Origin: a virus
Lineage: Duplodnaviria > Caudoviricetes
Length of the DNA stretch: 64,000 bases
IMG/VR virus record: IMGVR_UViG_3300021963_000022
Direction: 5' to 3' (one strand)
The notes below the pieces were generated by a model, which saw only the letters and a list, made by a program, of their open reading frames with translations, had not been told where the DNA came from and searched no databases. Below are positions 6,967 to 40,754 of the stretch, piece after piece (position 1 is the first letter of the stretch; every line of letters starts with the position of its first letter). Both the position numbers and the translations under genes were made by a program.

Positions 6967-7020
6967 ATTTACGATTTTAGTACTTAATACTACATAAAAT
7001 ACTTGATGATAAATATTCTT

Positions 7021-8458: not shown

Positions 8459-8505
8459 GTAGTACTCCTTTTCTGTTATTATCACTAATTGTATTTAATG
8501 CCATA

Positions 8506-10697: not shown

Positions 10698-12248
10698 ATG
10701 CTATTCATACCTACTAACTACGAAACCGTCTTCCTTAGCTATGACGAACCAAATTGCGAAAGTAATTACAAACGTCTATTAGAACTATGTCCAACTGCTA
10801 AAAGAGTACACGGAGTCAAGGGATCTGATACTGCACACAAAAAAGTAGCTGAACTATGTACAGGTGATCGTGTTAACATCATCGACGGTGATAACTATGT
10901 GCGGTCTGACTTCTTTACAAACGAGTATAACATAGATGACTTTAATTGTAAAGTTGTTAGCTTTAGTACTAGAAATCATATCAACGGACTACAATATGGA
11001 AACGGTAGTATCAAATCATGGCCCGTTACTCTACTAAAAGAAATGCGTACCCATGAAAATACAAATAGTAATACTACATTAGTAGACTTTGACTTTGGTA
11101 ACTATCTGCAGGTTAACACTCTAGGTAGCTGTGTTATTAACAACGGTAGCCCATTACAAGCGTGGCGTGCTGGATTCCGTGAAGGTGTTAAACTATGTAT
11201 GAGGAATGGATTAGTTGTATCTAGTCTAGAGGAAATCGACTGGCGTAACTTTGATAGACTATGGAACTGGATGCACATAGGCAGTGATGTAGTCAACGGA
11301 CTATGGGCTATACACGGGGCACGTTTTGGATGCTGGCAAGCATTACTTAACTTCGACTTGAAAAATCTACATGACTTTAACTATATAGATAATATGTTCT
11401 ATGACCTTACGTTTAGCGATTCAAAATTTAGAGATAGATTAGAAACAGAATGTAACAGAATTGGTCAACTAATTCGTGTAAAAACAAACGACCGTAGAAT
11501 AAAAAACGTATACAGCAATGGAGATAGCAAACTGTACAAGGAACAAGTAAAACCTATATTACGCTGTCCTGACAACAAACCATATGACATTGTATTCATT
11601 AGCTATAATGAACTCAATTGTGACAAAAACTACAAACTTTTGTTAACAAGATTCCCTAGAGCTAAACGCATACATGGAGTCAAGGGAATACACAATGCAC
11701 ACATAGAAGCGGCAAAACTGTGTGATACTGATTACTTTTGGGTAGTTGATGGTGATGCTGAAATTGTAGATGACTTTAAGTTTGACTATGTTGTACCTTT
11801 CTATGATAACTTATGTACACGTGTTTGGAGAGCAAAGAATCCAGTCAATGACTTGGTATATGGATATGGTGGAGTAAAACTATTACCCAGAACAGCAACG
11901 GTACGAATGAATACAGACAGACCTGATATGACTACAAGCATATGTAAGAACTATGAACCCATAATGGTTGTTAGTAACATAGCACAATTTAATACTGACC
12001 CATTCAATACATGGAGATCGGCATTCAGAGAATGTACTAAACTAAGTAGTCAGGTCATACCCGGACAAATTGATGACGAAACAAAGAAACGATTAGACAT
12101 ATGGTGTACAACGGGTACTGACAGTTATGCAATCGATGGTGCTATCAAAGGACGTGAGTACGGTGAACAGCATAGACATAATATGAATATGCTACAAAAG
12201 ATAAATGACTTTGTGTGGATGAAGGAACAGTATGACAGATTTCACTGA
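10698..12248 (+). CDS. Tandem-duplicated GT-A-like (DxD) protein
   Basis: Two homologous halves VF.SY.E.N...NY..L....P.AKR.HGVKG...AH...A.LC.....(I/V)DGD; start 4 nt after CTAAATA. Confidence 0.65.
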   Translation: MLFIPTNYETVFLSYDEPNCESNYKRLLELCPTAKRVHGVKGSDTAHKKVAELCTGDRVNIIDGDNYVRSDFFTNEYNIDDFNCKVVSFSTRNHINGLQYGNGSIKSWPVTLLKEMRTHENTNSNTTLVDFDFGNYLQVNTLGSCVINNGSPLQAWRAGFREGVKLCMRNGLVVSSLEEIDWRNFDRLWNWMHIGSDVVNGLWAIHGARFGCWQALLNFDLKNLHDFNYIDNMFYDLTFSDSKFRDRLETECNRIGQLIRVKTNDRRIKNVYSNGDSKLYKEQVKPILRCPDNKPYDIVFISYNELNCDKNYKLLLTRFPRAKRIHGVKGIHNAHIEAAKLCDTDYFWVVDGDAEIVDDFKFDYVVPFYDNLCTRVWRAKNPVNDLVYGYGGVKLLPRTATVRMNTDRPDMTTSICKNYEPIMVVSNIAQFNTDPFNTWRSAFRECTKLSSQVIPGQIDDETKKRLDIWCTTGTDSYAIDGAIKGREYGEQHRHNMNMLQKINDFVWMKEQYDRFH

Positions 12249-13209
12249 TATACCATTTGAACGAATAGTTAAGTTTGGTCAGGCTACAATGCTTGATTCT
12301 AACCTATTCAGTATCAGTTGGATATTAGGTAGATTCTGTAACTATAGTTGTAGCTATTGCTGGCCCTATGCTAACAGTCAAACACCAGACTATAAAGAGT
12401 TTGAAGTCTATACTAGAGCTATTGATAGTATCAAAAAACAAGCAAGACATAACGGATTCACTAAGTTTCATTGGAGCTTAAGTGGCGGTGAACCTACCGC
12501 TTATAAGCAATTGAATGAACTTGTAGCACACTTGGGCGTTGAAGATTATCAAAGTATTCACATGACTACTAACTTAAGTCCCGGTATCAAATGGTGGGAA
12601 CGATGGTTAGAGAATACAAAATACATGCAACGCCGTAGTATTACTGCTAGCTTTCACCATGAGTTTGCAGATGAAGTAGAGTTTGGTGATAAGATATTAT
12701 TCTTAATGAATAACCAGGTGTTCGTAACAATTAATCAAGTTATGGTTCCTGAACAGTTTGAACAACTATATGATAGATGCAAACGATTTAATGATAGGGG
12801 TATCAACGTTACACTAAAGCCTCAAAGTGACCCTACAGCTAGCAGAGTAGTTGATGGATATACTGATGACATGCTATATCGTATGCGTACAGGGTTCCCA
12901 CAACAACTAAATCAACAAGACCTATATCAAGTTAAGTTAATAGATGATACTAACAAAGTATGGTATCTGGATCAAGCTGAACGCTTTAATAGTTTTGGAT
13001 TCAACAACTTTAAAGGATGGATGTGCAATAGTGGTTATCAGGGTATAGTAATTAGAGAGAATGAAGTTAAACGTAGCTATAGTTGTATGGATCAACCAAT
13101 TGGTACACTAGATAACTTTACAATATTCACTGAACCAAAAGTCTGTATATCAACCGCATGTGTCAGTTCAGCCGATAGTAAATTACCAAAAGTAAAATGT
13201 ATAAACTAA
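12232..13209 (+). CDS. Radical SAM protein with C-terminal Cys-rich (twitch-like) domain
   Basis: CNYSCSYC, SGGEPT, MTTN; C-terminal WMCNSG...C...C....C. Confidence 0.9.
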   Translation: MTDFTDIPFERIVKFGQATMLDSNLFSISWILGRFCNYSCSYCWPYANSQTPDYKEFEVYTRAIDSIKKQARHNGFTKFHWSLSGGEPTAYKQLNELVAHLGVEDYQSIHMTTNLSPGIKWWERWLENTKYMQRRSITASFHHEFADEVEFGDKILFLMNNQVFVTINQVMVPEQFEQLYDRCKRFNDRGINVTLKPQSDPTASRVVDGYTDDMLYRMRTGFPQQLNQQDLYQVKLIDDTNKVWYLDQAERFNSFGFNNFKGWMCNSGYQGIVIRENEVKRSYSCMDQPIGTLDNFTIFTEPKVCISTACVSSADSKLPKVKCIN

Positions 13210-14180
13210 ACAATATCAAAGAGATTCATTTAGAAATAACAAGCAAATGTCAAGCACGTTGCCCAATGTGCCCTAGACGACCTCATGGTGGACCACTCAA
13301 CCCATATATTGAACTCAATGAAATTACATTAGAAACATTTAAAGAATGGTTCAATGTTGACTTTGTGAAACAACTATCACGGTTGTTTATGTGTGGTAAC
13401 TTAGGCGACCCTATTGTTGCTAAAGATACACTAGAAATCTATCAATACCTACGTGAATCCAATCCCAATATTACGCTATCAATGAACACAAACGGTAGTG
13501 CTAAAGATACAGAATGGTGGAAGAAACTAGCTAAACTAAATGTCAGAGTTATATTTGGAATCGACGGACTAGCTGACACTCATCAATTATATCGTGTATC
13601 TACTGATTACCATAAGATTATAGATAATGCAAAAGCTTTTATTAGTGCGGGTGGCAGTGCTGAGTGGCATATGCTAGCATTTAAACATAATGAACATCAA
13701 ATAGAAAGTTGTGAACAACTTAGTAAAACACTAGGCTTTAACAAGTTTGAAGTTAAACACACTTCACGCTTTCAAAAAGATAATCTACCAGTAATAGATA
13801 ATGACGGTAAGACTGTTCATATCATTGAACCCACACAACGTAGTAAAGAACTACGTGACAGTGTATTGTCAGCTATCACAATAGACAGACCACAAATACT
13901 ATGCAAAGCACAGAAGTATAGTCAGTTGTATATAGGTAGTGACGGAACTGTTAGCCCATGCTGTTGGTTAGATGTTAACTGGTTCGCACCCATGAACGAA
14001 TCACGAATAGATTACATGGATCAGATCGGTGAGTTCCCTAATCTAAACAACAATACCCTAGAAGAAATCTTTGAATCACAATATTTCAATAAGATAGAAA
14101 ACACATGGAATAACAATTCATTAAAAGAATGTAGCAAACAATGCGGTGTGTTTGATAAGTTTGGAGAACAGTTTAAATGA
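13197..14180 (+). CDS. Radical SAM protein with twitch/SPASM domain
   Basis: CQARCPMC, CGNLGDP, NTNG, GIDG; LCKA...DGTVSPCCW...CSKQC. Confidence 0.9.
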   Translation: MYKLNNIKEIHLEITSKCQARCPMCPRRPHGGPLNPYIELNEITLETFKEWFNVDFVKQLSRLFMCGNLGDPIVAKDTLEIYQYLRESNPNITLSMNTNGSAKDTEWWKKLAKLNVRVIFGIDGLADTHQLYRVSTDYHKIIDNAKAFISAGGSAEWHMLAFKHNEHQIESCEQLSKTLGFNKFEVKHTSRFQKDNLPVIDNDGKTVHIIEPTQRSKELRDSVLSAITIDRPQILCKAQKYSQLYIGSDGTVSPCCWLDVNWFAPMNESRIDYMDQIGEFPNLNNNTLEEIFESQYFNKIENTWNNNSLKECSKQCGVFDKFGEQFK

Positions 14181-14782
14181 AAATTGATTTAGAACATTTA
14201 CACTACTGGATGCAAGCTATTAGAAATAGCGAGAACCAAATGCGAACCATGGATGCATTTTGGAGTGGACAACTTAAAAGTAAAGAATGGTTAATAGATA
14301 GCTTAGAGTTTGTTGTCCGTCCATATATTAACAAAACAAAACTAGCAGTAGACATTCACGGTGGATGGGTAGGGGTATTGGCTAGTATGTTATTTCAAAG
14401 TAATTTACATATATCATCTATACGTAGTGTTGATATAGACCATACTTGCGAATCAATTGCTAATATGATGAACCGTAAAGAAGAATTAGAGAATAGATTT
14501 AGAGCAGTAACATATGATATGTGTGACATTAGATCCGATGCTGATATCATTATTAATACAAGCTGTGAACATATTACACAGGATCAATATGATTTGTGGT
14601 TAAGTGGGCTACCACACAATAGTTTAATCGTGTTACAAAGCAATAACTATGACATACCAGAACATGTTAGAATCTGTAATGATTTACAGGACTTTAAGAG
14701 TCAAAGCAGCTTAAAAGTCCTGTTTCAAGGAGAGTTACAATTACCGTTGTACTCTCGTTATATGCTAATTGGTAAGTTATAA
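14177..14782 (+). CDS. Class I methyltransferase-like protein
   Basis: IHGGWVG motif I-like loop, SVDID, IINTSCEH. Confidence 0.6.
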   Translation: MKIDLEHLHYWMQAIRNSENQMRTMDAFWSGQLKSKEWLIDSLEFVVRPYINKTKLAVDIHGGWVGVLASMLFQSNLHISSIRSVDIDHTCESIANMMNRKEELENRFRAVTYDMCDIRSDADIIINTSCEHITQDQYDLWLSGLPHNSLIVLQSNNYDIPEHVRICNDLQDFKSQSSLKVLFQGELQLPLYSRYMLIGKL

Positions 14783-15502
14783 GTTTCTAACTAGTTTACC
14801 TGCTTGGGCATCAGCAATTGTAGCATCACTTGCGGCATTTTTAGGTATAGTAACTAATTGACCTTCAAGTGTAAGATATTGGTAGTTATCATCAACTAAT
14901 GTTAATGAATCAAAAACATTGTTGCTCACAAAGAAATTAATAGTAACATAACGTGTAGCTGTTGAATTATACTTTGCCCACGTAACATTTGATGTAGGGC
15001 AATACATGCTAGCTGTATTATACTGATTAGTAACCGTTGCATTCTCAGACTCTGGGTCATTGGATTTATATAGCACGGTTTCTATATTAATGTTTGGTGT
15101 CATAAACGAAACAATGTTACATACTTTGTCAATTGCACTATCATTAATATACGGAAATATATGATTGGGTGCTATTACACTAAATGAAGGTACACACATA
15201 ACACTAGAATAATTTCTATGATTTGGATACTTGGTAAAAATATTACTAAGATTATCTAGTATAGACTCATTTGCTTCTGAAATAAGGTCAAACGCTTCTT
15301 GGCCAATAGCATCTTTGGCATCATATATAGATATATTAGTCAAACCATCATACGTTTCGGTAGGATTTAAAGTGGCTAATAGCCCTTGAATTCCTTCGGT
15401 AATTTTGGTGTGTGCATCAGTTTCAAAAAAACCAGAAACGCTTTGGTGAGACCATGGAGTCGTCTGAATTGGGGAGTTGAGTAGGTTATTAATGTTAAAC
15501 AT
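14777..15502 (-). CDS. Hypothetical protein, possibly degenerate 2OG-Fe(II) jelly-roll
   Basis: ORF 241 aa; TTPWSH..V.GFF N-terminus and ...R.VTINFF C-terminus; the HxD site reads INDS. Confidence 0.45.
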   Translation of the reverse strand: MFNINNLLNSPIQTTPWSHQSVSGFFETDAHTKITEGIQGLLATLNPTETYDGLTNISIYDAKDAIGQEAFDLISEANESILDNLSNIFTKYPNHRNYSSVMCVPSFSVIAPNHIFPYINDSAIDKVCNIVSFMTPNINIETVLYKSNDPESENATVTNQYNTASMYCPTSNVTWAKYNSTATRYVTINFFVSNNVFDSLTLVDDNYQYLTLEGQLVTIPKNAASDATIADAQAGKLVRNL

Positions 15503-15569
15503 AGTATTGTATTTATCACTGGAAATAAGGTTTATTAAAAGGACATGCTATAACTCAATAAATATTCTT

Positions 15570-16748
15570 ATGAAAATAATTCAAAATCAGCAAGAAATCA
15601 ACATTACATCTCATGTTAAACTGGCTGAAACACAATTAAAGGATAGTAAAATATACGTAGTTAATACGCAAAATTATATTGAACACATTGCGGCTTACAT
15701 AGCTTGGACTAAAGTGGGTGGCAACATCTTTGTTAAATCTACTCTATTACCCGAGAAGCAATCAGAAATACTAGACGAAAAGATTAGTAACTACAGTTAC
15801 GAAAACTCTATATGCTTTCATACTAGCGGAACTACGGGTGTACCTAAATTAGTAGTACACACCAAAGAACAAATGGACAGTATCGCACTTATGGCAACTA
15901 AGCATATGCGTTGGGAAGAGAACACTAGATTTTTGAATTTTTTTCCCGCGTCAACATCTGGGTTCTGGCATATTGTACTTGCCCCTGCATTATATAACAA
16001 TTCAACAATTGTATTAGGGTCACGTGAAACATTGATAGAAAACCTCAATGAGGATGTTAATTACACTATATTAGTACCATCATTAATTGATATGATTCGT
16101 ATGAACAACATGCCAGTTGATTTATCTAGGGTTAAACGAGTGGGTACAGGAGCTTCTGCTGTATCTAAAAGACATGCTGAAATATTGTTCAGTCTGGGTG
16201 CTACTGAAGTTAATCAGTTGTACGGTGCCACTGAGATAGGTTCTCCTTCATTGTACAAGAGTAGCACTTCAATAGATGACTATCCAGACTATTTAGAATT
16301 AAAGAATACAGATATTAGTGAGTTTAAATTAGTCAATAATGAACTATATGTCAAGAGTAAAACATTATGTGTGAACTATAAAGATTTTTCGTCAGACGGA
16401 GAATGGTTTAAGACAAATGATTTATGGGAACAGAAAGGAAACTTAGTCAAATTTGCTGGACGATCTAATGACATTGTGAAACTAAACGGATATCAATGCA
16501 GTTTATTATTAATTGAATCTACTATTGAGAATAATACAAACCTGGGTGAAGTCTTAGCTATCCCTAGAAATAAAATGGGCACTGATTACATTGAAGTAGC
16601 TTACACTAATAACACTATTATTAATAAACAAACACTAAATTCTATGCTAGAAACACATGTTCCTGTTTATAGCATACCAAGAAAATATACATATGTCGAA
16701 TCTTTACCCAAGACTTCACTAGGAAAAAAGATTAGAAATGTACTTTAA
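15570..16748 (+). CDS. ANL-superfamily adenylating enzyme (acyl-CoA/AMP ligase)
   Basis: FHTSGTTGVPK (A3), YGATE (A5), FKTND (A7), GRSNDIVK (A8), PKTSLGK (A10). Confidence 0.9.
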   Translation: MKIIQNQQEINITSHVKLAETQLKDSKIYVVNTQNYIEHIAAYIAWTKVGGNIFVKSTLLPEKQSEILDEKISNYSYENSICFHTSGTTGVPKLVVHTKEQMDSIALMATKHMRWEENTRFLNFFPASTSGFWHIVLAPALYNNSTIVLGSRETLIENLNEDVNYTILVPSLIDMIRMNNMPVDLSRVKRVGTGASAVSKRHAEILFSLGATEVNQLYGATEIGSPSLYKSSTSIDDYPDYLELKNTDISEFKLVNNELYVKSKTLCVNYKDFSSDGEWFKTNDLWEQKGNLVKFAGRSNDIVKLNGYQCSLLLIESTIENNTNLGEVLAIPRNKMGTDYIEVAYTNNTIINKQTLNSMLETHVPVYSIPRKYTYVESLPKTSLGKKIRNVL

Positions 16749-17319
16749 ACAAATATACAAAGATGACCCACTATTACCCGACTTCATTGTACGGTGTTCA
16801 ACATATGGATATAACAATAACTCTACACTAGATAAGATTAAGTTTGATTACTTTGAACATTCTGCATTCTTTGCAGGGATAGAAGATGACAAAATTAAAG
16901 TATTCAGCGGGGTACATAACTTTGAATATGATAACAAACAATATTGGCGTGTAGGATTTAGAGCCGTAACTCTCTATGATGACAAGTTTAAACCAAAACC
17001 ATCTAATAACTTTAGAAAAATATCATACAGCGCCGGTGTGCTTTTCACATTAGAAATGAAATGGGTAGAACATAACTACGGTACGGGTACGTTTATTATA
17101 ACCAGCAACGACAATCAAAATAAAGTTGATACCGCAGGACGTAGTCGTATGTTTGATACTATCGCTAAACGTAATAGAGTAAGTGGATGTACATTATTAT
17201 ACGATAAAATTACATACTTAAACACTGTTCAGAACGTTTGGTTGCTTGACAGAGATTTATGGTTTAGTGACTATCAAAAGTATTACGAGGGTAACATAGA
17301 TGTTAGACTATCTTTCTAA
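16738..17319 (+). CDS. Hypothetical protein, possible GNAT-like acyltransferase
   Basis: ORF coupled to the ligase; beta-rich FFAG...VFSGV...WRVGFRAV segment. Confidence 0.4.
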   Translation: MYFKQIYKDDPLLPDFIVRCSTYGYNNNSTLDKIKFDYFEHSAFFAGIEDDKIKVFSGVHNFEYDNKQYWRVGFRAVTLYDDKFKPKPSNNFRKISYSAGVLFTLEMKWVEHNYGTGTFIITSNDNQNKVDTAGRSRMFDTIAKRNRVSGCTLLYDKITYLNTVQNVWLLDRDLWFSDYQKYYEGNIDVRLSF

Positions 17320-17992
17320 TCTGATAGAGAATTACAAGTATGAGAATGTGAAACAATTTCACAATATACCACTACCATATAGTTATGATAGCAAATATAC
17401 ATGGAGTCATAATGATACAGGATATACCGTTAATAACGAATATACCAGTTGCTATATAGATAAAGCAACAGGCTTTGTATATAAACTAAGCTGTTTGTAC
17501 CGTAATGACGACTTTGATAAGCACAAACTGTTATATAGATTAACAGAGAAATACAACTATAGGATAGAAATACCACGACATTCTGAGACTGTTATAATCA
17601 ATGACAAACAATACTTATACACCGTAGTTCAACGCCCAAACAATCAGATAGGAATTGATTACCATTTAGATATAGTAAACAATAGGGTGAATAATGATTA
17701 CTTCATAGAGTTTATTGACTCAACTGTACCATTGTTTAAAGCACTGTTTGAGGTTGATAGTGTGTTTAAAACAGGATTACCCAGCGTCTTTATACTACCA
17801 ACAAAACGATTGCGTGATGATATAGGCTATTTCTACTTTGATTTTAAAAAGTGGCATCACCCTAAAAATAAATACATGTTAGATAATAGCAATAACTTAT
17901 TGTATCAGATTAATTACTGCAACAATAACGGTATCAAACTTGATACAGAGTATTTAAAACAACATATTGAAAACACATGGACGATAGAATAG
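17300..17992 (+). CDS. Hypothetical protein, possible kinase-like fold
   Basis: ORF 230 aa; VYKL and YFDF motifs are only suggestive. Confidence 0.4.
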   Translation: MLDYLSNLIENYKYENVKQFHNIPLPYSYDSKYTWSHNDTGYTVNNEYTSCYIDKATGFVYKLSCLYRNDDFDKHKLLYRLTEKYNYRIEIPRHSETVIINDKQYLYTVVQRPNNQIGIDYHLDIVNNRVNNDYFIEFIDSTVPLFKALFEVDSVFKTGLPSVFILPTKRLRDDIGYFYFDFKKWHHPKNKYMLDNSNNLLYQINYCNNNGIKLDTEYLKQHIENTWTIE

Positions 17993-18159
17993 CTACAGTA
18001 CACGTGTACAAAGATACTGAGTTACTATTAACTACTCAAATATTCGGACAATGGTTAAATCTAATAACTGATGTGTACTTAGATTGGGAAGACAGTCCCT
18101 ACAATCTAGTTATTGAATACGACAGTAAAACACTTAAGGTAAACAATGCAGGTAGTTGA
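17977..18159 (+). CDS. Small hypothetical protein
   Basis: Overlap-coupled ORF within the operon. Confidence 0.5.
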   Translation: MDDRIATVHVYKDTELLLTTQIFGQWLNLITDVYLDWEDSPYNLVIEYDSKTLKVNNAGS

Positions 18160-18583
18160 TATTATATACGATAAATCTAACTTGAATTTAGGGTTAGACC
18201 ATATACAACATAACACTACCCCTGTATCATATAGCAACGGTGATCTATTAGAATATAATGTTAGTAAAAATCGTTTTGAAACTAACATTGACTATAAGTA
18301 TTCCTGCTATGGTGTTACACAAAGTGACACACTACCTATGCATACAGACGAAGGACGCAATAGTACAATCATTTTACCTATAGATACGGACAATACAACA
18401 CTATTATATGGTAACAATTCGGTAATTATTGACAAACCATTTGTATTAGATACGTCAATATTGCATGGGATCAATGGAATAAAGGGCTTTAGTTTTCTAG
18501 CATTAGACTTTGAATTAGTGTATAATGATGTAGTAGAGTACCTAAAAGATAAAACAAACTTATATATTAAATATGTCGGATAA
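18146..18583 (+). CDS. 2OG-Fe(II)/cupin-like oxygenase
   Basis: LPMHTD (HxD) ... FVLDTSILHGI (distal His). Confidence 0.6.
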   Translation: MQVVDIIYDKSNLNLGLDHIQHNTTPVSYSNGDLLEYNVSKNRFETNIDYKYSCYGVTQSDTLPMHTDEGRNSTIILPIDTDNTTLLYGNNSVIIDKPFVLDTSILHGINGIKGFSFLALDFELVYNDVVEYLKDKTNLYIKYVG

Positions 18584-19841
18584 AAGTAAAACATTCTGTA
18601 TGCACCCATTTACAGGTTTAGCTACAAGAGAAGACGGGGCAATTAAGATATGCTGTCGCAGTCTGCCTATCGGATGGATTCAAAACGAATCATTAGAATC
18701 CGCATGGAACAATGATAAGATGCTTAGTGTACGTAAGCAAATACTAAATGACGAACGCCCTGACGTATGTACACCCTGCTTTGACTTAGAAGATCAGGGT
18801 GTTGAAAGCTTGCGACAACGACATATACAACCCAGACTCCCTGAGAGCAGAATTGTATTGTATCCAAATCAATTAAATCAATTAAATGATGACTATTCAA
18901 TGCCCTTTGAATTCCCTACAATGGAGATTAAACTAAACAATCTGTGCAATTTACGCTGTAGAATGTGTAACCCACTAGATAGTACAAGCTGGCAAGACTG
19001 GAATAGTATCGTTGAATTCTATAAGAAAGAAAACAATTACTTAGTTCCTACGGTAGAGAAGTTAGTGGATAAGCCCGGACAATATATAGGTCCGTTTGAT
19101 GATAGTGACAATTGGTGGAATAGCTTTGAGAAACTAATCCCACACTTTAAACGTGTAGAGTTTGCTGGTGGTGAACCCTTAATGGATCCTCAACACTATA
19201 AGATACTAGATATGCTTAAGCCCTACGCTAAGAATATTGAAATCAAATATGCTACAAACGGTACAACATTGGGTATTAGTAAGAATAGAACAATCTTTGA
19301 CTACTGGCCTCACTTCCGTAGTGTTGCGGTTAACGTATCTATAGACGGAATACATGATGTATATGAACATATTAGAGGTAACGGTGACTTTAGTGAAGTT
19401 GTTAGAAATGTACAAGAGATTAAAAAATTACCTAATATCAGTAGAATCGTGGGGGCATTTACTGCACAAGCGGGCAATATGTTACAAATGGCTGATTGTA
19501 TCAGATATTTCTTAGATGACTTAGGTATATACTTCTACAGTCATCGTGTTAGCTATCCTAAACTACTATCTGCACAAGTATTACCCCAACCATTAAAAGA
19601 CTTATGTATTGAACGATTAACTAATTTGTATAATAATATTGATACAATTAAGAACATTGACTTTAGTGCATACAGTCGTGGCATTACATTACAGCAAATC
19701 AATGACAATATCAACTACTTAAAAGCTGTTGACCAAAACAATTTGTGGAGTGATTACATAGAGTTTAATCGTAGATTAGATGACAGTAGAAAGTGCAAAA
19801 CACTATTAGAAGTTGTACCGGAGTTTAAACCATATGTATAA
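18573..19841 (+). CDS. Radical SAM protein with N-terminal twitch domain
   Basis: N-terminal FCMHPF...DG.IKICC...WN...C..C; CNLRCRMC; FAGGEP; ATNG; SIDG. Confidence 0.9.
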   Translation: MSDKSKTFCMHPFTGLATREDGAIKICCRSLPIGWIQNESLESAWNNDKMLSVRKQILNDERPDVCTPCFDLEDQGVESLRQRHIQPRLPESRIVLYPNQLNQLNDDYSMPFEFPTMEIKLNNLCNLRCRMCNPLDSTSWQDWNSIVEFYKKENNYLVPTVEKLVDKPGQYIGPFDDSDNWWNSFEKLIPHFKRVEFAGGEPLMDPQHYKILDMLKPYAKNIEIKYATNGTTLGISKNRTIFDYWPHFRSVAVNVSIDGIHDVYEHIRGNGDFSEVVRNVQEIKKLPNISRIVGAFTAQAGNMLQMADCIRYFLDDLGIYFYSHRVSYPKLLSAQVLPQPLKDLCIERLTNLYNNIDTIKNIDFSAYSRGITLQQINDNINYLKAVDQNNLWSDYIEFNRRLDDSRKCKTLLEVVPEFKPYV

Positions 19842-20742
19842 GGTACAGGGTATTTGGGGACACGAAAATAGCGTTAAGATTGAATGGAATTTAGGTAAAC
19901 GCTGTAACTACGATTGTAGCTATTGCCCAAGCATTATACACGATAACACCAGCCCACACACTGATATTGAACTATTAAAGAGTACGGTAGATAAACTGTT
20001 GTCTATCAATAAGCCATTACGTATTAGCTTTACTGGTGGTGAACCTACTGTACATCCTAAGTTTGAAGAATTAATAGAGTACTGTAATAGTAAAGATGTA
20101 AAGTTTATTAGTGTTACTACTAATGCTACACGGAAACCTTTGTACTATAAGCAATTAAAACTTAACCAATTAGTGTTTAGTTTGCACTTTGAATATGAAT
20201 GGGAACGTTGTTTAGACACTATTATCAAAACAATAGCCAGTGACAGTGATGAGAAAGACTATCAGAAACACTGTTTAGTACATGTCATGGCGCACCATAA
20301 CTATATGGCTCAAGTTAAAGAAACCGTAGAAAGATTAGATTTCTACCATATTCCATATAATATACGTAGAGTTCGTTGGAGTGATAATATAGACCATGAT
20401 ATCTTTGACGATTTACGCTATGACCAAAAAGACTTAGATTGGATATTAAAAAAAGCTAGCACAGTTATGCCCAATGTAAGAATAGATAATAGCAAGACCT
20501 ATCATGCTAATGATGTGATTAAATTGCATCTAAACAAGTATAAGGGTTGGACTTGCAATGCGGGACTTGAGAGTTTAATGATTAATTGGGACGGTGAGGT
20601 ACATCGTGCTACATGCCGTGTTGGTGGAAGCTTGGGTAATATCTACTCTAGTGATTTTACTCTTCCCGTAGAGCCAATTGTATGTGATAGAAACTTCTGT
20701 ACTTGCGCCGCAGATATACCATTAACGAAAGAATTATTATGA
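19834..20742 (+). CDS. Radical SAM protein (paralog of 12232-13209)
   Basis: WNLGKRCNYDCSYC, TGGEPT, TTN; WTCNAG...CRVG...C....C.C. Confidence 0.9.
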   Translation: MYKVQGIWGHENSVKIEWNLGKRCNYDCSYCPSIIHDNTSPHTDIELLKSTVDKLLSINKPLRISFTGGEPTVHPKFEELIEYCNSKDVKFISVTTNATRKPLYYKQLKLNQLVFSLHFEYEWERCLDTIIKTIASDSDEKDYQKHCLVHVMAHHNYMAQVKETVERLDFYHIPYNIRRVRWSDNIDHDIFDDLRYDQKDLDWILKKASTVMPNVRIDNSKTYHANDVIKLHLNKYKGWTCNAGLESLMINWDGEVHRATCRVGGSLGNIYSSDFTLPVEPIVCDRNFCTCAADIPLTKELL

Positions 20743-21320
20743 GATTAGTAACATTTGGATGTAGCTTAACATATGGTGACAGCTTACCTGACAATAAATC
20801 AGCATGGCCCTATTTAACTAGTAAACATCTTAATATTCCCTGTGATAATCAAGGACAACGTGGCGTTAGCAATCATAAAATATTGTACAATATTCTGAAC
20901 TATAAGTTTAACCCAGACGATATTGTAGTAATCATGTGGACGTATGTTACTAGAGAGATGCGTTTACAAATTGATGGTACTAGCGAATTGTTTGGACCAT
21001 GGGATAAGGGTGGCATTGAAAGACCGTGGGTTGAATTCGCAGAACCCTATGATTATAGCGTTAAAACACTAATCAATATACATCATGCTAAACTACACCT
21101 AAACTCACTAAACATGAAACATATACACTTTAAAGCTGATAACAGCACAGAGTTACCTTTAGCAATGGATAAGTGTACGTTTATCAACAATGTTTTTGAC
21201 TTCGATGTGAGTAAGGTTGACCCAGTAGACTATGGATTAGATAATAGTCATCCGGGCCCCAAAACGCATGAACTGTTTTCTCTTACAGTAAGTGACTTAA
21301 TTCGGGAAAAGTTTCTTTAA
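20739..21320 (+). CDS. SGNH/GDSL-like protein
   Basis: TFGCSLTYG block I, G.SN block II, D.SHP block V. Confidence 0.65.
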   Translation: MRLVTFGCSLTYGDSLPDNKSAWPYLTSKHLNIPCDNQGQRGVSNHKILYNILNYKFNPDDIVVIMWTYVTREMRLQIDGTSELFGPWDKGGIERPWVEFAEPYDYSVKTLINIHHAKLHLNSLNMKHIHFKADNSTELPLAMDKCTFINNVFDFDVSKVDPVDYGLDNSHPGPKTHELFSLTVSDLIREKFL

Positions 21321-22689
21321 GGTTAAGCTTACGCTGACTATCAATGTGACTTATATATTCACTGAACGCGGGCAATAGATGGGTATCATCACTGCCGTCC
21401 ATAAACTTTAATACAGCTTCATATCGTTTCCAACCATATGGATTCTTATGCCAGAACTCATCTGATTGTGTATAATTATTCCATAGCCAGTCTTTCAACT
21501 CACTAAACAATTGATGTACTTCTTGCTTATCTACTTCAGGTAACACACGTAAGCTAAGATATGTAGGAATATACAGTAGATGAAAGTTAATTAATCCGCC
21601 ACCGTACTGAGTATTTCCTGGACCATATCCTAAATTAACCTTTCTAAACTTACTATTGACTTTCCATTTAATAAATTCAGGTAAATGTTTAATGTTTAAT
21701 ACTTGTATAGCGGTAGCAATACTTACTTCAATGTTGTCCGGTGTATTGTCTAACTTATGTAAGTTCTTTTCAACTGTAGCCCAGTCACTAGGATAACGTA
21801 TATAGTAGTTACGTTGGTCAGTACCATCTAAACTAAAGCCAAACTTTACTTTCTTAAAGTGTTTCCATAAGTCTATAATATCATCATCTACTAATAGTCC
21901 ATTGCTATTGTATCTTAATAGTATACGATCCTGGTATCCCTGTCTAATGATTTCTTCAATAAACATCTTATGTTCTTTAATCATTAATGGCTCGCCACCG
22001 GCAAAATATACTTGTTTTAAGTTAGGTATTTGCTTGTACATTTCAGCCCAAAAATCTGGGTTCTCATGCCAATAATTATTAAATGATTGCTCATCCCAAC
22101 CCATTTGCCGTTTTAATTCATCATTCTTATATAGATTGATAACCTTCTTATACTCTGTAACCCACTTACTACTATCATGTGGGCTACACATAACGCATTT
22201 TAATTGACAAGTATGTCCTAATCGTAAGTCTAAGTACACTAATTCTTCGGGGATGGTTCCGTCTTCTTGTGTTTGTTTAATTAGTTCTTCTACATCTATA
22301 TCTTCTTGCATCCACGTGTATGTTTCCCATAACCTTTTACTACTAACACCTTGTGATTCTTCATTAAAGCATTTAGTACAGCTTTTAGGTATCTTACCAT
22401 CAAGCATCGTAGTTCTAACACTACGCATGTATTCATTATTCCAAGCACTCATGGGTGTTTCACGACCGAAGTTAGCTGGCTGTCCACTCTCATTCTTAAC
22501 TAATCCTATAGTATGGTCACCACCTGCGCCACTAGCATTACTACTACAGCATAGACGCATATCACCGTTAGGACGTGTAGCAAAGTGTATCCAGGGTAAT
22601 ACACAGAATGTATCTACTTTTGCTTGATTTTTAATCTGTTGTTGAAAGTTTCCAACTGGGGAATCTTCTGGTTGAATCCAATATGTCAT
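21283..22689 (-). CDS. Radical SAM protein with N-terminal twitch domain
   Basis: FCVLPW...GDMRLCC...WN...C..C; CQLKCVMC; FAGGEP; NSNG; SLDG. Confidence 0.9.
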   Translation of the reverse strand: MTYWIQPEDSPVGNFQQQIKNQAKVDTFCVLPWIHFATRPNGDMRLCCSSNASGAGGDHTIGLVKNESGQPANFGRETPMSAWNNEYMRSVRTTMLDGKIPKSCTKCFNEESQGVSSKRLWETYTWMQEDIDVEELIKQTQEDGTIPEELVYLDLRLGHTCQLKCVMCSPHDSSKWVTEYKKVINLYKNDELKRQMGWDEQSFNNYWHENPDFWAEMYKQIPNLKQVYFAGGEPLMIKEHKMFIEEIIRQGYQDRILLRYNSNGLLVDDDIIDLWKHFKKVKFGFSLDGTDQRNYYIRYPSDWATVEKNLHKLDNTPDNIEVSIATAIQVLNIKHLPEFIKWKVNSKFRKVNLGYGPGNTQYGGGLINFHLLYIPTYLSLRVLPEVDKQEVHQLFSELKDWLWNNYTQSDEFWHKNPYGWKRYEAVLKFMDGSDDTHLLPAFSEYISHIDSQRKLNLKETFPELSHLL

Positions 22690-23285
22690 TAATATAGTCC
22701 TGGTAATATTGTGCCGATACCATCATTGATTCTATGATTACCCGGCTGTTTGTATTGTACACTAAGTTCTTTAATATAAGGTTTGTCAATCATAAACTTA
22801 ACATTCTTTATAACATCATCTAATGCTAATGTATTTAAGTGTTCGTAATGCTTATGTATATCAACGCTAATCTCTTGTAAATGCCCTAAATTAATCATAT
22901 AACTGTCTAGGTAATTGTTATGGAACATACGTGCAAACGCTATTTTTCTATGTGTAAACTTTAAACTAGCTTTCTCTACATCATAACTACTGTAGGGATT
23001 GTTCAATAATAACGTATTAACATAGCTTCCTATATTAATAACCTTGTGCTGTATCTTATTATGATAGCAATGTTTATCTAAATTAGCTAACAGTTTCACT
23101 TGTCCAAACTGCATGGCCCTAGTGAAGTTAATTGTATAATCATAGTTTGGTGTATCTAGTAAGAAATTAGTTATATCGCCGTGTAGGTCAAACCCATTGC
23201 GTCTACTGTAATAAGTTAAATCAAATAGTGTACTAAATCGTTGTCCTAACGGATGTGATTCGTCACACGTTATTCTAGCTTTCAT
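22689..23285 (-). CDS. Degenerate SDR-like protein
   Basis: KVINIGS...YDVEK (YxxxK) motif; no clear Gly-rich loop. Confidence 0.45.
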   Translation of the reverse strand: MKARITCDESHPLGQRFSTLFDLTYYSRRNGFDLHGDITNFLLDTPNYDYTINFTRAMQFGQVKLLANLDKHCYHNKIQHKVINIGSYVNTLLLNNPYSSYDVEKASLKFTHRKIAFARMFHNNYLDSYMINLGHLQEISVDIHKHYEHLNTLALDDVIKNVKFMIDKPYIKELSVQYKQPGNHRINDGIGTILPGLY

Positions 23286-24156
23286 AATATATCCTTGTGT
23301 ATGGTAATAGTGTTATGTTCTTTGTTATACATAGTTCATCTATTAATATGTAGCGTTCTTTACTGTAATCATTTAATGATGTGATATAATGATATACATT
23401 GCTGATCCAGAGTGTTGAGCCGTTTGGAATAACATCTAATAAACGTTTTATATCTTTTGTATTCCGCATATCAATTAGCTCGAATCCAACATTAATTGTT
23501 CTAAGATAATCATAGTACGTGTTTAGTTTAATAAAGTCAATACCATTAATATCGTCTATTGTAGCAGGATTAAACCCTGTTGTCAATAGTCCTAGATACT
23601 TGACATATGTGTCATATCGGTTGTTTGAATGTAATAACTCTTGTTGGAAGCTTAAGCTATCATTACTGTAGTCATAATAGATAACACTTTCCAGCATGTT
23701 TTCATATGCTAATTGTGCTAAATGTGACCCACTACTAAGTCCTGCAAGTGCCACAGTATCGGTAATGATGGGCAATGGTTCTGTGTTTATAGCGTACACT
23801 TTCCTATCATTCTCGTATGTGTTAATGATATCCGTAATAATATTACGGTCTGTTGTATTATAGAGGTCGTATACGTTATCAGTGAATGTTGTTATAACTG
23901 TATTATCGGTTGATTTTTTTAATACAAGTTTACCATTCTTATATACTTCCACGTTGGGTAGTTTACGTATCTTATTGTTTAAGTCTGGGTGACAAATTAT
24001 ACCCTCATCTATCAGATAATAGGGTTTAGTATATGTCCCAATATTGGGCTTAACTGTGTTAATTTTGTCGTTCTGTAACAATATACCATAATGCACTAGG
24101 CTTTGGGCAGTGTATATGTTTTGTTTATTGTTTAAATATAGATGGTAATCTAGCAT
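23275..24156 (-). CDS. Hypothetical protein
   Basis: Long ORF; start set at ATG 24156, 8 nt below CTAAATA. Confidence 0.6.
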   Translation of the reverse strand: MLDYHLYLNNKQNIYTAQSLVHYGILLQNDKINTVKPNIGTYTKPYYLIDEGIICHPDLNNKIRKLPNVEVYKNGKLVLKKSTDNTVITTFTDNVYDLYNTTDRNIITDIINTYENDRKVYAINTEPLPIITDTVALAGLSSGSHLAQLAYENMLESVIYYDYSNDSLSFQQELLHSNNRYDTYVKYLGLLTTGFNPATIDDINGIDFIKLNTYYDYLRTINVGFELIDMRNTKDIKRLLDVIPNGSTLWISNVYHYITSLNDYSKERYILIDELCITKNITLLPYTRIYYES

Positions 24157-24189
24157 GAGATAAATATTTAGTTCATAAATAAGCACCCA

Positions 24190-25044
24190 ATGCAAAAGTA
24201 TACACCAACTGAGAATGCATTAGTCCCATACGTATTCCCCGAAATATCTGAGTTATTTAAAAATAACATAGAGTTACCTCATTGGGATACCCGCCATGAC
24301 ATATTAAACAACTACCGTACTGAATGTCTTAATTGGTTGCAAAATGGTAATAGTACTATAATCCGTGGCTTAGAACGTTTCAAGTATGTTTATGTATTAT
24401 ATGGTGGCAGTCAGTATATTGATGATTTAGTTAAGTTTGAAGACCGTCACATAGAATTACATAAGCATGAATATGTAGCATATAGAACACTATTAGACTT
24501 ACATAATATGAAATTTACCCAGCATGATTCATTTGATACTATGGGTAAGGATTCAGATAAGTTAGTGATAGTTAGTTATCCGTTCAGTTTAAACGGGAAC
24601 AGGGATGTTGATATAGAGAAACTATTAACTGAATCTACTAGTAAAATCACACTGGACAGCGTATTCTTAGGTACTAATATGTTCCCTATTACATTAGACT
24701 TTAATAAATTATCTAACGTTGAAAGTTTTGTATTCAGTTTTAGTAAAGGGTTTGGATTAAGATATTCTAGGATTGGGATTATGTTTACAGATAAATTCAT
24801 TCCGGAGTATGACATATATCATAAGTATGCTTATTTAAATCTATATTCTTGCCAGATTGCACGTGAGTTAATGAGTAAATACAATATAGATTACTTTACA
24901 GAGAAGTATAAATCTGTGCAGGAAGAAGCCTGCAAATTATTAAACGTGGCTACATCAGATTGTTTACATTTGGGTATTGATACTAATACAGACTATCCTG
25001 ATAAGAAAGTTAGAATCACACATTTATTTGACAAATTATGCTAA
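24190..25044 (+). CDS. PLP-dependent (fold I) aminotransferase-like protein
   Basis: TLDSVF (PLP Asp) and FSFSKGFGL..RIG (Schiff-base Lys) motifs. Confidence 0.7.
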   Translation: MQKYTPTENALVPYVFPEISELFKNNIELPHWDTRHDILNNYRTECLNWLQNGNSTIIRGLERFKYVYVLYGGSQYIDDLVKFEDRHIELHKHEYVAYRTLLDLHNMKFTQHDSFDTMGKDSDKLVIVSYPFSLNGNRDVDIEKLLTESTSKITLDSVFLGTNMFPITLDFNKLSNVESFVFSFSKGFGLRYSRIGIMFTDKFIPEYDIYHKYAYLNLYSCQIARELMSKYNIDYFTEKYKSVQEEACKLLNVATSDCLHLGIDTNTDYPDKKVRITHLFDKLC

Positions 25045-25526
25045 TAGAAAAGACAGATATCAGAATAGACCTAGAGGGTTTACGCAAACATTATTTAAAT
25101 AATGTACAGAACTGGCCCCAACATAAGAGTAGAATATGTTTGAATAACCATGATGACTCAGAGGATTACGTACTAAATGCAGGGCAACGATTGATTTATA
25201 CTGAGTTCAAGTATATGAATAGTATATTCAAAGATACTATATGGGAAGACACATTAAAGATTATTCCAGGGAAGATTGGACGTGCTAGAATAATGAATAT
25301 GGGCCCAGCTAAGTTATTAACAATGCATAGAGATACTGAAGCACGGTGGCATATTGCGTTATTTACTGATCCTAGCTGTGTTGCATATGATTTAGAAACT
25401 AATCAAGCATTCCATATACCAAGTGACGGATACTTATATAAATTGAATGCAAGAAGATTACATACTGTGTTTAACAGTAGTAACAATGTAACCCGTACTC
25501 ATTTAGTAGTGTGTGAATATGTATAA
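25038..25526 (+). CDS. 2OG-Fe(II) oxygenase (Asp/Asn-hydroxylase-like)
   Basis: RARIM...TMHRD...WHIAL...LHTVFN...RTHLV. Confidence 0.7.
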   Translation: MLIEKTDIRIDLEGLRKHYLNNVQNWPQHKSRICLNNHDDSEDYVLNAGQRLIYTEFKYMNSIFKDTIWEDTLKIIPGKIGRARIMNMGPAKLLTMHRDTEARWHIALFTDPSCVAYDLETNQAFHIPSDGYLYKLNARRLHTVFNSSNNVTRTHLVVCEYV

Positions 25527-25803
25527 GAACTATTTTAAAATACATATTGGGGACAAAGAATTATTCAAAGATATATTGCCCAATACATCTTGGCAAGAGA
25601 AAGACATATTAGGTAAACTAATGGCTGACTATATCCCGTTAAGATTACATGAAATGATACCCGTTAGTGAGTATTATGAATGTAGATGGGATAGTATTGA
25701 TAGTTACAATGAAGTTATCAATACTATTGAGTATAGTCAGATAATAAACAAGCTATTAGAGTATTCAGCTAACGTTGAGTGGTTTGAGTTTCTGCCAAGC
25801 TAA
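25513..25803 (+). CDS. Hypothetical protein
   Basis: Overlap-coupled ORF. Confidence 0.5.
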   Translation: MNMYKNYFKIHIGDKELFKDILPNTSWQEKDILGKLMADYIPLRLHEMIPVSEYYECRWDSIDSYNEVINTIEYSQIINKLLEYSANVEWFEFLPS

Positions 25804-26184
25804 GTTTTCTACACTATTATCTCTTATTTCATAGTTTTCTAATGTGGGGTAGAGCCAAATATTATCTACTAGATTGTTCTTATCAAATGTATTGATAATA
25901 TCTGCTACTTTAACAGGATCTATTTGTTTATGCATATACAGATAGATTGTAGTATAAACCTTTAAGCTATCAGTAAATCCGCTTTCAATCATTTTAGATA
26001 GTCCTATACCAGTATTAGTAGTATATCCCTCTAGACTCTCAATGGGCATTAACATGATAACTTTATTGCCTATAATGTCTTTAGTGTAGTCATCACCGAT
26101 GTTACTGACAATTGTATAATCTATTTCATTTAGATTATTGCGTACAATGTTATTGTACTCACAGTTGTTGCCGATAAAGTTCAT
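25765..26184 (-). CDS. Hypothetical protein
   Basis: ORF; probable start MNFIGNN. Confidence 0.5.
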   Translation of the reverse strand: MNFIGNNCEYNNIVRNNLNEIDYTIVSNIGDDYTKDIIGNKVIMLMPIESLEGYTTNTGIGLSKMIESGFTDSLKVYTTIYLYMHKQIDPVKVADIINTFDKNNLVDNIWLYPTLENYEIRDNSVENLAWQKLKPLNVS

Positions 26185-26818
26185 ATTCCTTGTTCCATAT
26201 TGAGTTGTATTCAGTATTTTTATAGTTCGTAAACCATGGACCACCGTCAGTATAATGTAAAGCTTTAGGTGTTCCGGTACAATACCCAACTAAGTGATTC
26301 CAAGCAGTGTCTATTGATCCTATATGTTTATCGTCTAACCATTTAAATTGATGTAGATAATTTGGTTCCATATTGTTTACGTCTATATTTCTATTTAATA
26401 TGTGTTCACAGTTGAATAGAATAAGACTAGACCAATTCTTTCTAGGATAAGAATATTGTGTTTTGTTATCCATTTTAATTGATGTTTTTGGTGTGTAGGC
26501 GTGTTTGACTACCATAACAGCATAGTCGTTATTAACTGTGTTGAATAGTTCATTTACATCAGTTAAGAACAAGAAATCGCAGTCGCAGAACAATGCCCAG
26601 CCAGTATATTTATTAAGTAATGGCACCGTGAATCTAGTTAATGTAAATTCTGTACTAGCCTTATCGTCTATGGGCCTGGTGTAGATATGTTTGTCTCGTA
26701 GTTCCTGTTGAACTATGGGTAATACATTTACATTGCTATGTCGTAAGATGCTGTGTTTACATACTTCATAAACGTTATTAAGCCTAGAATCATATCCAAC
26801 ATATACGTTATTTGTCAT
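26159..26818 (-). CDS. GT8-like glycosyltransferase
   Basis: STEFT.TRF..P, FCDCDFL (DxD), YPRKNWSS, WNHLVG, HYT.GGPW. Confidence 0.8.
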   Translation of the reverse strand: MTNNVYVGYDSRLNNVYEVCKHSILRHSNVNVLPIVQQELRDKHIYTRPIDDKASTEFTLTRFTVPLLNKYTGWALFCDCDFLFLTDVNELFNTVNNDYAVMVVKHAYTPKTSIKMDNKTQYSYPRKNWSSLILFNCEHILNRNIDVNNMEPNYLHQFKWLDDKHIGSIDTAWNHLVGYCTGTPKALHYTDGGPWFTNYKNTEYNSIWNKEYELYRQQL

Positions 26819-27913: not shown

Positions 27914-27915
27914 AT

Positions 27916-27944
27916 AGTATACACTATATGTGATAAGTACACAA
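27916..27944 (-). promoter_or_regulatory. Possible sigma70-type promoter of the SleB gene
   Basis: TTGTGT-17 nt-TATACT. Confidence 0.45.
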
Positions 27945-27961
27945 CCTTAGTTTAACCGAAT

Positions 27962-38438: not shown

Positions 38439-38493
38439 GTTATCTCCGTTAGATATAAAAATATTTATAACAGAGATAACATGTCTGTATATT

Positions 38494-38910: not shown

Positions 38911-38931
38911 ATTAATGTTCCTTTGTAGTAT

Positions 38932-40719: not shown

Positions 40720-40754
40720 AGAGATATTTAGAACTATCCCTATATTACAAAATA

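Follow-up and report, generated by a model that had tools for sequence, protein, structure and literature searches.

What does a phage make with five radical S-adenosylmethionine (SAM) enzymes encoded in one cluster? The question is raised by an island at 10.7-26.8 kb of the IMG/VR record IMGVR_UViG_3300021963_000022, of which a stretch of 64,000 nucleotides, here called the window, was analyzed as a whole. Judged from its genes, the window is part of the genome of an uncultured giant T4-like phage: downstream of the island lie ribonucleotide reductase, baseplate-wedge, fibre, and PAAR spike tip genes, and an open reading frame (ORF) of 4386 amino acids (aa). The ORF listing and Pfam place 21-22 densely packed genes in the island (Table 1), which consists of a conserved core (g02, g03, g04, g05, g12, g13, g15, g16, and g19) and strain-specific filler. 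The preferred answer, held at a probability of about 0.5, is that the island encodes a cytoplasmic pathway for tailoring a glycoconjugate. This answer is built on fold assignments and two independent genomic contexts rather than on a known reaction, and the work is placed in the cytoplasm because all of the proteins are soluble.

The conserved core and the accessory ligase

Scanning the whole window for ORFs of at least 150 aa with the CX3CX2C motif yields exactly five proteins, all located at 12.2-22.7 kb, and each radical SAM enzyme (rSAM) exceeds the cut-off of PF04055 (44-48 bits vs. 29.5). A preliminary description of this DNA had recognized five such enzymes in three architectures, and Pfam, NCBIfam, and the motif scan bear it out. 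The proteins g12 and g15 match the NCBIfam model NF033640 (N_Twi_rSAM) over profile positions 1-397/398 with 308 and 390 bits, respectively, against a cut-off of 170. Their twitch domain is N-terminal: Pfam SPASM matches lie at residues 9-69 and 29-107, and four N-terminal cysteines (C9, C27, C66, and C69 in g12 numbering), followed by CX3CX2C, are invariant across nine paralogs. A C-terminal SPASM domain is present in g04 (PF13186, 35.4 bits vs. a cut-off of 21.5, residues 236-316), and its top named NCBIfam model is TIGR04317, a cofactor-enzyme maturase, with a score far under the cut-off. The third architecture comprises the paralogs g03 and g13 (24% identity), which end in a Cys-rich tail that has no Pfam SPASM match. 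The rSAM paralogs of the window are 24-27% identical to one another, whereas orthologs across phages are 58-70% identical, and therefore each paralog appears to have its own conserved job. Searches against PDB sequences gave nothing useful for g15 and g04, and for g13 only a generic viperin-type N-terminus, the cluster-binding segment, was matched. No literature on N-terminal-twitch (N_Twi) rSAMs or on rSAMs in Bdellovibrio was found.

Variants of these enzymes are present in relatives. In two N_Twi paralogs (L081:7205-8596 and L081:8580-9914), the CC pair of the twitch domain is replaced by C-H and C-Y (SCHHP and SCYHP), and therefore the ligands of the auxiliary cluster vary among N_Twi paralogs. 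Proteins of ~500 aa with CX3CX2C (families F30 and F47) are encoded at L024:14498-15976 (-) and L005:15901-17430 (+). Judged by eye, their N-terminus resembles the domain that binds cobalamin in class B rSAM methylases.

The transferase g02 contains two modules that are 35% identical to each other, with an invariant DxD (D61, D63). The AlphaFold2 (AF2) model of its second module (pLDDT 87) has a GT-A glycosyltransferase fold, and all of its Foldseek matches are GT-A. VIA-align gives Z scores of 10-12 for the module, with Z 12 to B4GALNT1 and with SunS/ThuS, PBCV-1 A64R, and PgaC among the matches; the neighbours among PDB and Swiss-Prot models are of GT2 type only. The PF00535 score of 17.8 bits is under the cut-off of 23.3, and g02 is thus GT2-like by its modelled fold, not by sequence membership. 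The tandem GT-A gene of the preliminary description is recovered in the two modules, the modelled fold, and the DxD motif. No Pfam, NCBIfam, or PDB sequence match was obtained for g05, but its AF2 model (pLDDT 90.6) aligns in Foldseek with NTMT1, DnrK, and NodS (E ~1e-9, probability 1.0, TM 0.6), and its Gly-rich motif I, DIHGGWVG, is conserved, with G62, G63, W64, and G66 invariant. The predicted class I SAM-dependent methyltransferase fold of g05 agrees with the methyltransferase gene that had been named earlier.

The oxygenase-like protein g19 has an HxD...H...R signature (H97, D99, H142, and R153) that is invariant in 22 homologs. Its family profile matches the β-hydroxylase Cpz10 (7V4F) at E 2e-22, and it is linked to the Asp_Arg_Hydrox-positive family F19. 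Two or three genes resembling 2-oxoglutarate (2OG)-Fe(II) enzymes had been proposed; g19 stands, whereas the others have no Pfam or PHROGs support. The short protein g16 is matched by a local hidden Markov model (HMM) of family F10 at E 9e-14, and the F10 representative itself has only a weak N-terminal match to RmlD_sub_bind/Epimerase. The earlier label of a short-chain dehydrogenase/reductase (SDR) is kept for g16 as a lead, through this link to F10.

The conservation of these genes was followed by tblastn and clustering in IMG/VR, where 157 relatives of g12 were found; the related-phage counts given here refer to the 80 loci kept, which have a median identity of 70% to g12. Taken together, g03, g04, g05, g12, g13, g15, and g19 are matched in 61-80 of the 80 loci. 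By gene, g13 is present in 77-80 loci, always directly behind g12, g15 in 70-80 (68% identity), g19 in ~70 (~30% identity), g04 in 67-70, g05 in 61-64, and g03 in at least 47 (median 60% identity). The HMM link to F10 places g16 in 43 loci, and by tblastn g16-g18 are in 2-3. Lower counts are obtained for g14 (23 loci), g02 (17), g22 (3), g17 (2), and g20-g22 (2-3), and g06 and g10 are confined to this phage. Most of the kept loci contain the core families in shuffled order; gene orientation varies too, but g12-g13 and g03-(g04)-g05 remain adjacent. In the synteny survey that the preliminary description had suggested, the core families do co-occur, but the ANL ligase and most of the accessory genes that it had named do not.

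Relatives also carry divergent rSAM paralogs, 2OG oxygenases, and an Asp/Asn-hydroxylase family. In family F17 (25 loci), seen at L041:17642-18472 (-), one protein combines a cold-shock (nucleic-acid-binding) domain with a 2OG-Fe(II) oxygenase domain; this fusion is absent from the window. In all, g15 matches more than 4000 protein clusters, and large protein searches with g15 or a paralog profile returned only near-identical phage proteins, with no cellular context. Lake, freshwater, and estuary metagenomes from at least 11 studies contain this genotype (at least 88% of the 31-mers sampled over 12232-21320), and the two runs that match best may stem from the samples that yielded this DNA.

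A complete relative of 357.6 kb, G001 (IMGVR_UViG_3300044701_000569), has 13 PF04055 genes, all within 167.6-189.4 kb and mostly in one co-directional gene run; 7 of the 13 are N_Twi. Two modules of the g02 type are separate genes in G001, each directly upstream of rSAM genes, and ten non-rSAM genes of its island have no Pfam, PHROGs, or NCBIfam match. Far from the island, G001 encodes IscU (233659-234039; NifU_N, E 7e-56) and an A-type iron-sulfur (Fe-S) carrier (266414-266716; E 5e-15), which plausibly serve to load its 13 rSAMs. The idea of a 7-deazaguanine pathway was considered separately and rejected: with no QueC or TGT match by Pfam in G001, none of the island rSAMs can be argued to be a QueE stand-in. 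A single PTPS match in G001 lies far from the island.

The adenylate-forming ligase g07 is a genuine ANL enzyme, as previously claimed, with 68.4 bits to PF00501 (cut-off 29.9) and with the core motifs A3, A5, A8, and A10 readable in its sequence (TSGTTGVPK, YGATE, GRSNDIVKLNG, and PKTSLGKK). Pfam does not report PF13193 for g07 and its phage clade, while the cellular matches carry PF13193, and NCBIfam alignments reach the C-terminus of g07. The clade is composed of short, phage-only ANL enzymes, with ~68 clusters at 37% identity or more, followed by a drop to 26% or less. In the related loci, g07 is found in 2 of 80, which are the two closest relatives, and two distant phages have a g07-type gene with no rSAM within 10 kb. 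The neighbours in these distant phages are GDP-mannose dehydratase/epimerase, GT10, UDP-glucose dehydrogenase, DegT, and a hexapeptide-like gene. Being rare in the loci and found in rSAM-free contexts, g07 is therefore a cassette of its own, associated with sugar pathways and not a partner of the rSAMs. An acylated product with the ligase as part of the pathway, as the preliminary description had it, is not upheld, and acylation is at best a strain-specific decoration.

A counterpart on Bdellovibrionota chromosomes

Genome contigs scanned with g15 by itself gave no match. When an alignment of four paralogs served as the query, 212 relatives were obtained, and the bacterial locus counts refer to the best 80 of the 212. 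Nearly all of these 80 cellular relatives are from Bdellovibrionota, many on large contigs or whole chromosomes, and their location is chromosomal because the neighbours include RlmN, GcvP, Lon, NADH dehydrogenase, and DHODH. NF033640 exceeds its cut-off in 31 of 151 sampled Bdellovibrionota genomes vs. 0 of 14 controls, and four Bdellovibrionota genomes have 12-33 matches each.

The families in the bacterial loci are N_Twi (180 copies in 78 of the 80 loci), g03/g13-like (44), g04-like (31), g05-like methyltransferases (B6; 10), g02-like GT-A (8), and g18-like (B5, 24% identity; 11 of 80). Among them are 29 Bdellovibrionota orthologs of g15 with 42-49% identity. Within three genes of these orthologs, a g04-like rSAM is present in 22 of 29, a g03-like rSAM in 20, and a g18-like gene (B5) in 3; g02-like GT-A, GT2, and g05-like methyltransferase genes are also nearby. 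Among the other neighbours, the families met most often are GT2 (B3 in 20 loci and B4 in 17), GT4, NodU-type carbamoyltransferase, class V aminotransferase, major facilitator superfamily (MFS) proteins, and proteins with multiple transmembrane segments. The preliminary description had joined the rSAMs into a pathway with transferases and a methyltransferase, and this view gains support from the co-occurrence of the same families in phages and, near GT2/GT4 genes, in Bdellovibrionota.

In a FastTree phylogeny of N_Twi, each phage paralog group pairs with a different bacterial group, and the g15 phage clade is sister to a bacterial group that adjoins GT-A, g03, and g04 genes. The branching pattern points to paralogs that had already diverged when phages and bacteria exchanged them.

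Several Bdellovibrionota N_Twi proteins are fusions (L163:2228-6715 (-), L166:1377-3527 (-), and L164:4449-7058 (-)), with extensions of ~1000 aa at the C-terminus and ~240 aa at the N-terminus in which PDB and Atlas searches gave no recognisable partner domain. Outside Bdellovibrionota, N_Twi was met in L097 (a 2.4-kb contig from a Candidatus Entotheonella metagenome-assembled genome (MAG)), L119 (a Dojkabacteria MAG), and L151 (a Limisphaerales chromosome). The short contigs among them may be misbinned phage DNA. The 349.5-kb 'bacterium' contig L116 resembles another jumbo phage.

What the island may make

In a glycoconjugate-tailoring pathway, the GT-A units would transfer a sugar to an acceptor in the cytoplasm or assemble one on it. 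Each rSAM paralog, combining a 5'-deoxyadenosyl radical with its auxiliary Fe-S cluster, would change one unactivated carbon of that sugar, and the candidate reactions are epimerisation, dehydrogenation or dehydration, and C-C or C-methyl chemistry. Further decorations may come from the methyltransferase and the hydroxylase and, in this strain, also from the aminotransferase-like protein, the ANL ligase, and the GT8-like protein. Candidate acceptors would be a virion protein, a lipid-linked envelope precursor, a nucleotide sugar, or DNA. Counted in favour of such a pathway are further glycosyltransferase genes of the window at 38.9-41.6 kb, near the baseplate and fibre genes.

Several points weigh against this reading. 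To our knowledge, NF033640 and the g03 and g04 families have no member of known substrate or reaction. The nearest named models of the rSAM families are peptide or cofactor maturases and viperin/MoaA, all of them far under cut-off. Co-location with glycosyltransferase genes is indirect support, and peptides and cofactors are further targets of GT2 enzymes (SunS and MftF are among the matches). No membrane protein, flippase, or polymerase is encoded in the cluster; no enzyme for making activated sugars (nucleotidyltransferase or 4,6-dehydratase) is recognised at 10.7-26.8 kb. The N_Twi tree is midpoint-rooted and carries no support values.

Most characterised SPASM/twitch rSAMs are peptide maturases, and an alternative, regarded as unlikely, is that the rSAMs act, in the manner of such maturases, on residues of phage (virion) or host proteins by cross-linking, epimerisation, or methylation, with the GT-A units glycosylating the same target. 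The rSAMs have weak matches to PapB, YhhB, CefB, AlbA, and YydG, the best fold matches of g02 extend to the PBCV-1 capsid glycosyltransferase, ppGalNAc-transferases, and two peptide S-glycosyltransferases, SunS and ThuS, and g19 is among the Asp/Asn-hydroxylase-like cupins. Moreover, a few kb separate the island from the PAAR spike gene, and its counterparts in relatives adjoin fibre-like genes. However, all of the maturase matches are far under their family cut-offs, and the precursor recognition element (RRE/PqqD) domain is absent from the five rSAMs and from all cluster proteins; in the five, Pfam reports only Radical_SAM and SPASM. Beside the rSAMs of the 80 loci there is no conserved small Cys-rich or repeat ORF of at least 50 aa, and the gene overlaps leave no room for a hidden precursor. 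The preliminary description had likewise seen no obvious carrier protein or precursor of a ribosomally synthesised and post-translationally modified peptide (RiPP), and none was found among ORFs of at least 50 aa in the 80 loci, nor an RRE domain by Pfam. A diffusible small molecule or cofactor is quite unlikely as well. The product would be a glycosylated metabolite resembling an aminoglycoside or nucleoside antibiotic, or a mycofactocin-like redox cofactor, used while the host or prey is consumed. Several conserved, distinct rSAMs together are typical of cofactor and antibiotic pathways. The bacterial neighbours include MftF/SunS-like GT2, TobZ/NodU-type carbamoyltransferase, aminotransferases, and an MFS transporter, although each of these occurs in a minority of bacterial loci only. 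The best model of g04 is a cofactor-enzyme maturase, and the cellular family is concentrated in Bdellovibrionota (31 of 151 genomes vs. 0 of 14 controls). On the other hand, no scaffold-forming enzyme (cyclitol synthase or precursor peptide) is found, and the phage island has no transporter.

Hypermodification of nucleotides or DNA, in which an exotic base or sugar on the phage DNA would evade host nucleases, is improbable. It would fit the resemblance of the g13 and g03 N-termini to viperin, MoaA, and QueE, which act on nucleotides, but these viperin/QueE-type matches are limited to the generic cluster-binding segment. The nearest solved relative of g19 acts on an intermediate of a uridine-derived nucleoside antibiotic. 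An rSAM, a pyridoxal phosphate (PLP) enzyme, and a kinase co-occur in thymidine hypermodification, whereas no kinase or pyrophosphorylase is recognised in the cluster, where no search was aimed at those families. Furthermore, the module sits on Bdellovibrionota chromosomes beside GT2/GT4 genes with no DNA-metabolism neighbours, and G001 has no Pfam match to TGT (PF01702) or QueC (PF06508). Least probable of all is that there is no single pathway and that independent auxiliary genes have piled up in a hyperplastic stretch of a T4-like genome. Order and orientation are indeed shuffled among relatives, many inserts are confined to one or two phages, the ANL ligase travels on its own, and rSAM cassettes are known from hypervariable regions of pelagimyophages (PMC7029224). 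In contrast, g15, g03, g04, the g02 unit, and g05 are kept together in more than 70 phage loci and once more on bacterial chromosomes, and all 13 rSAMs of G001 lie in one 22-kb block, mostly in a single co-directional run.

A bolder form of the glycoconjugate reading is entertained here as a very doubtful proposal. The trio g15, g03, and g04, with a GT2-like partner, would be an ancient exchangeable module common to giant aquatic phages and Bdellovibrio-like predators. It would carry out undescribed radical sugar chemistry, such as multi-site epimerisation or carbon-skeleton rearrangement of an assembled glycan, and the product would mark 'self' or act on the consumed cell. If true, one sugar-chemistry module would be common to two kinds of killers of Gram-negative cells. 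The lineage is very abundant across lake, freshwater, and estuary metagenomes, and its relatives would invest ~20 kb, up to 13 oxygen-sensitive enzymes, and their own Fe-S assembly genes in one product. A reaction worked out for any of the three conserved rSAM families would add a new branch to radical SAM chemistry, and the module on Bdellovibrionota chromosomes, including at least one sequenced isolate (locus L135, NZ_JBLEQP010000001.1, ~1.86-1.90 Mb), offers a cultivable route to the function of genes from an uncultivable phage.

Gene inventory and comparison with known systems

The genes of the island form five or six blocks of alternating orientation (Table 1). Stop and start codons overlap in many of them, and the ORF listing confirms the tight packing reported before. 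The GC content of the cluster (0.32-0.37) is like that of the flanking DNA.

Table 1. Genes of the island at 10.7-26.8 kb of the window.
Gene and assignment	Position	Strand	Basis or remark
g02, two fused GT2-like GT-A modules	10698..12248	+	Alternative start 10608; homologs favour 10698
g03, radical SAM, C-terminal Cys-rich twitch-like domain (family F8/B1)	12232..13209	+	PF04055 44 bits; CNYSCSYC motif
g04, radical SAM with C-terminal SPASM	13197..14180	+	PF04055 45 bits, PF13186 35 bits
g05, class I SAM-dependent methyltransferase	14177..14782	+	Predicted fold
g06, 241-aa orphan	14777..15502	-	Only match is the IMG/VR contig of the same phage (L001); no family match
g07, short (392 aa) ANL adenylate-forming ligase, accessory	15570..16748	+	PF00501; ORF listed from TTG at 15477
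g08, g09, g10, g11, four small genes	16738..18583	+	No Pfam or PHROG match
g12, radical SAM, N-terminal twitch domain	18573..19841	+	NF033640 308 bits
g13, radical SAM, C-terminal twitch-like Cys domain	19813..20742	+	PF04055 47 bits; g03 paralog
g14, 205 aa, SGNH-like by motifs only	20703..21320	+	No profile match
g15, radical SAM, N-terminal twitch domain, archetypal NF033640 member	21283..22689	-	NF033640 390 bits
g16, short SDR/Rossmann-like protein, weak assignment	22689..23285	-	Local HMM of family F10
g17, protein with no family match	23275..24156	-	Two related loci only
g18, short class I/II aminotransferase-like (PLP) protein	24190..25044	+	Atlas feature score; motif
g19, small Fe(II)/2OG β-hydroxylase-like cupin	25038..25526	+	HxD...H...R; Cpz10 profile match
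g20 (96 aa, +) and g21 (174 aa, -), accessory genes	25513..26289	mixed	Only in L002 and L007; no family match
g22, GT8-like glycosyltransferase, borderline	26159..26818	-	PF01501 just under cut-off

No Pfam, PHROGs, or NCBIfam match was obtained for g06, g08, g09, g11, g14, g16, g17, g20, and g21. HMM links tie g08 weakly to family F15 (28 loci), g09 to F62, and g14 to F18, F32, and F102. The Atlas feature score of g18 to viral class I/II aminotransferase-like clusters is 0.98, with a motif SFSKGFG..R.G, and g22 scores 24.2 bits to PF01501 against a cut-off of 24.3 (E 3e-5). The PLP-dependent and GT8 genes of the preliminary description are accordingly retained at the level of leads, and its GNAT, kinase-like, and SGNH labels, the first two of them placed within g08-g11, find no support in Pfam or PHROGs. 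A megablast search of the cluster against a phage GenBank collection gave no match, and tblastn with g04 against phage GenBank met only distant rSAMs of the Campylobacter CP220 type and of Pelagibacter Mosig, with ~27% identity.

Late-type promoters and late expression had also been proposed. The canonical late promoter TATAAATA has seven copies in the whole window, which is not above chance, and none between 5.4 and 38.4 kb, so none in the cluster. Only ATAAATA 7-mers are present, a weak signal in two divergent gaps (before g06/g07 and before g18), and sigma-70-like and terminator-like sites are at chance level; the proposal is not supported.

To the left of the island, a tRNA array holds a DnaJ-domain protein (7003-7620, +) and an HNH endonuclease (7898-8485, -). 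The right flank at 27365-30228 (-) encodes a cell-wall hydrolase (PF07486), a 662-aa protein, and a PAAR-motif protein (29947-30228), and is probably a spike and lysis module. A second group of sugar-type genes at 36841-45207 (-) adjoins the giant ORF and the baseplate genes. It contains a β-1,4-glycosyltransferase-like gene (40755-41579, phrog_13126), a 595-aa protein (38932-40719), and a 573-aa protein with a methyltransferase segment (43486-45207). The single 4386-aa ORF (45302-58462, -) lies between these sugar-type genes and the baseplate-wedge/fibre gene (59398-62175).

Arrays of rSAMs in aquatic T4-like phages are already known and have been noted in two papers with no function assigned. 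The marine T4-like TARA_ERS488813_N000010 has 12 rSAM genes together with genes for Fe-S assembly (PMC5332604), and the host-recognition cluster of pelagimyophages carries rSAM cassettes (PMC7029224). The present phage resembles both in being an aquatic T4-like phage with many rSAMs in a variable region near tail genes, and G001 adds IscU and an A-type carrier. The likeness is drawn from their descriptions, and in contrast to the present analysis, the two papers give gene counts and general Fe-S metabolism or surface change only, with no core module, bacterial counterpart, or product. In NF033640, g12 and g15 are full-length members; the family is only catalogued, and membership gives no function.

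Among characterised pathways, the BtrN-type aminoglycoside enzymes are similar in being small rSAMs with one auxiliary cluster, encoded beside glycosyltransferase, aminotransferase, methyltransferase, and carbamoyltransferase genes. Unlike in BtrN, the twitch domain of g12 and g15 is N-terminal, the match of g13 is insignificant (E ~0.09), and the island lacks a scaffold enzyme such as 2-deoxy-scyllo-inosose synthase. The parallel is one of working mode only. The mycofactocin pathway (MftC, MftF, and a methyltransferase) has the same combination of rSAM-SPASM, GT2, and SAM methyltransferase, and MftF is the best match of the bacterial neighbour GT2 B29 (E 3e-23, under cut-off). In contrast, there is no MftA-like peptide, MftB RRE, MftD, or MftE, and g04 is far under the MftC model. 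The RiPP maturases PapB, AlbA, SuiB, and PqqE are alike in SPASM/twitch architecture and match weakly by profile, whereas the RRE domain and the precursor peptide are not found and the scores are far under cut-offs.

Cpz10 of the caprazamycin pathway (PDB 7V4F; PMC9814697) is the same kind of small cupin with HxD...H as g19; the alignment covers the catalytic core only (~100 residues), from which the substrate is not inferable. The virion-glycosylation enzymes of chlorovirus PBCV-1 (A64R) and Mimivirus (R699) align with the g02 model and are also soluble cytoplasmic glycosyltransferases near structural genes. Those systems contain no rSAMs, and the likeness here is that of the g02 model. Beyond what these systems had shown, the present analysis separates the core from the filler, places the ANL ligase outside the system, and quantifies a module of three rSAMs and a glycosyltransferase held in common with Bdellovibrionota.

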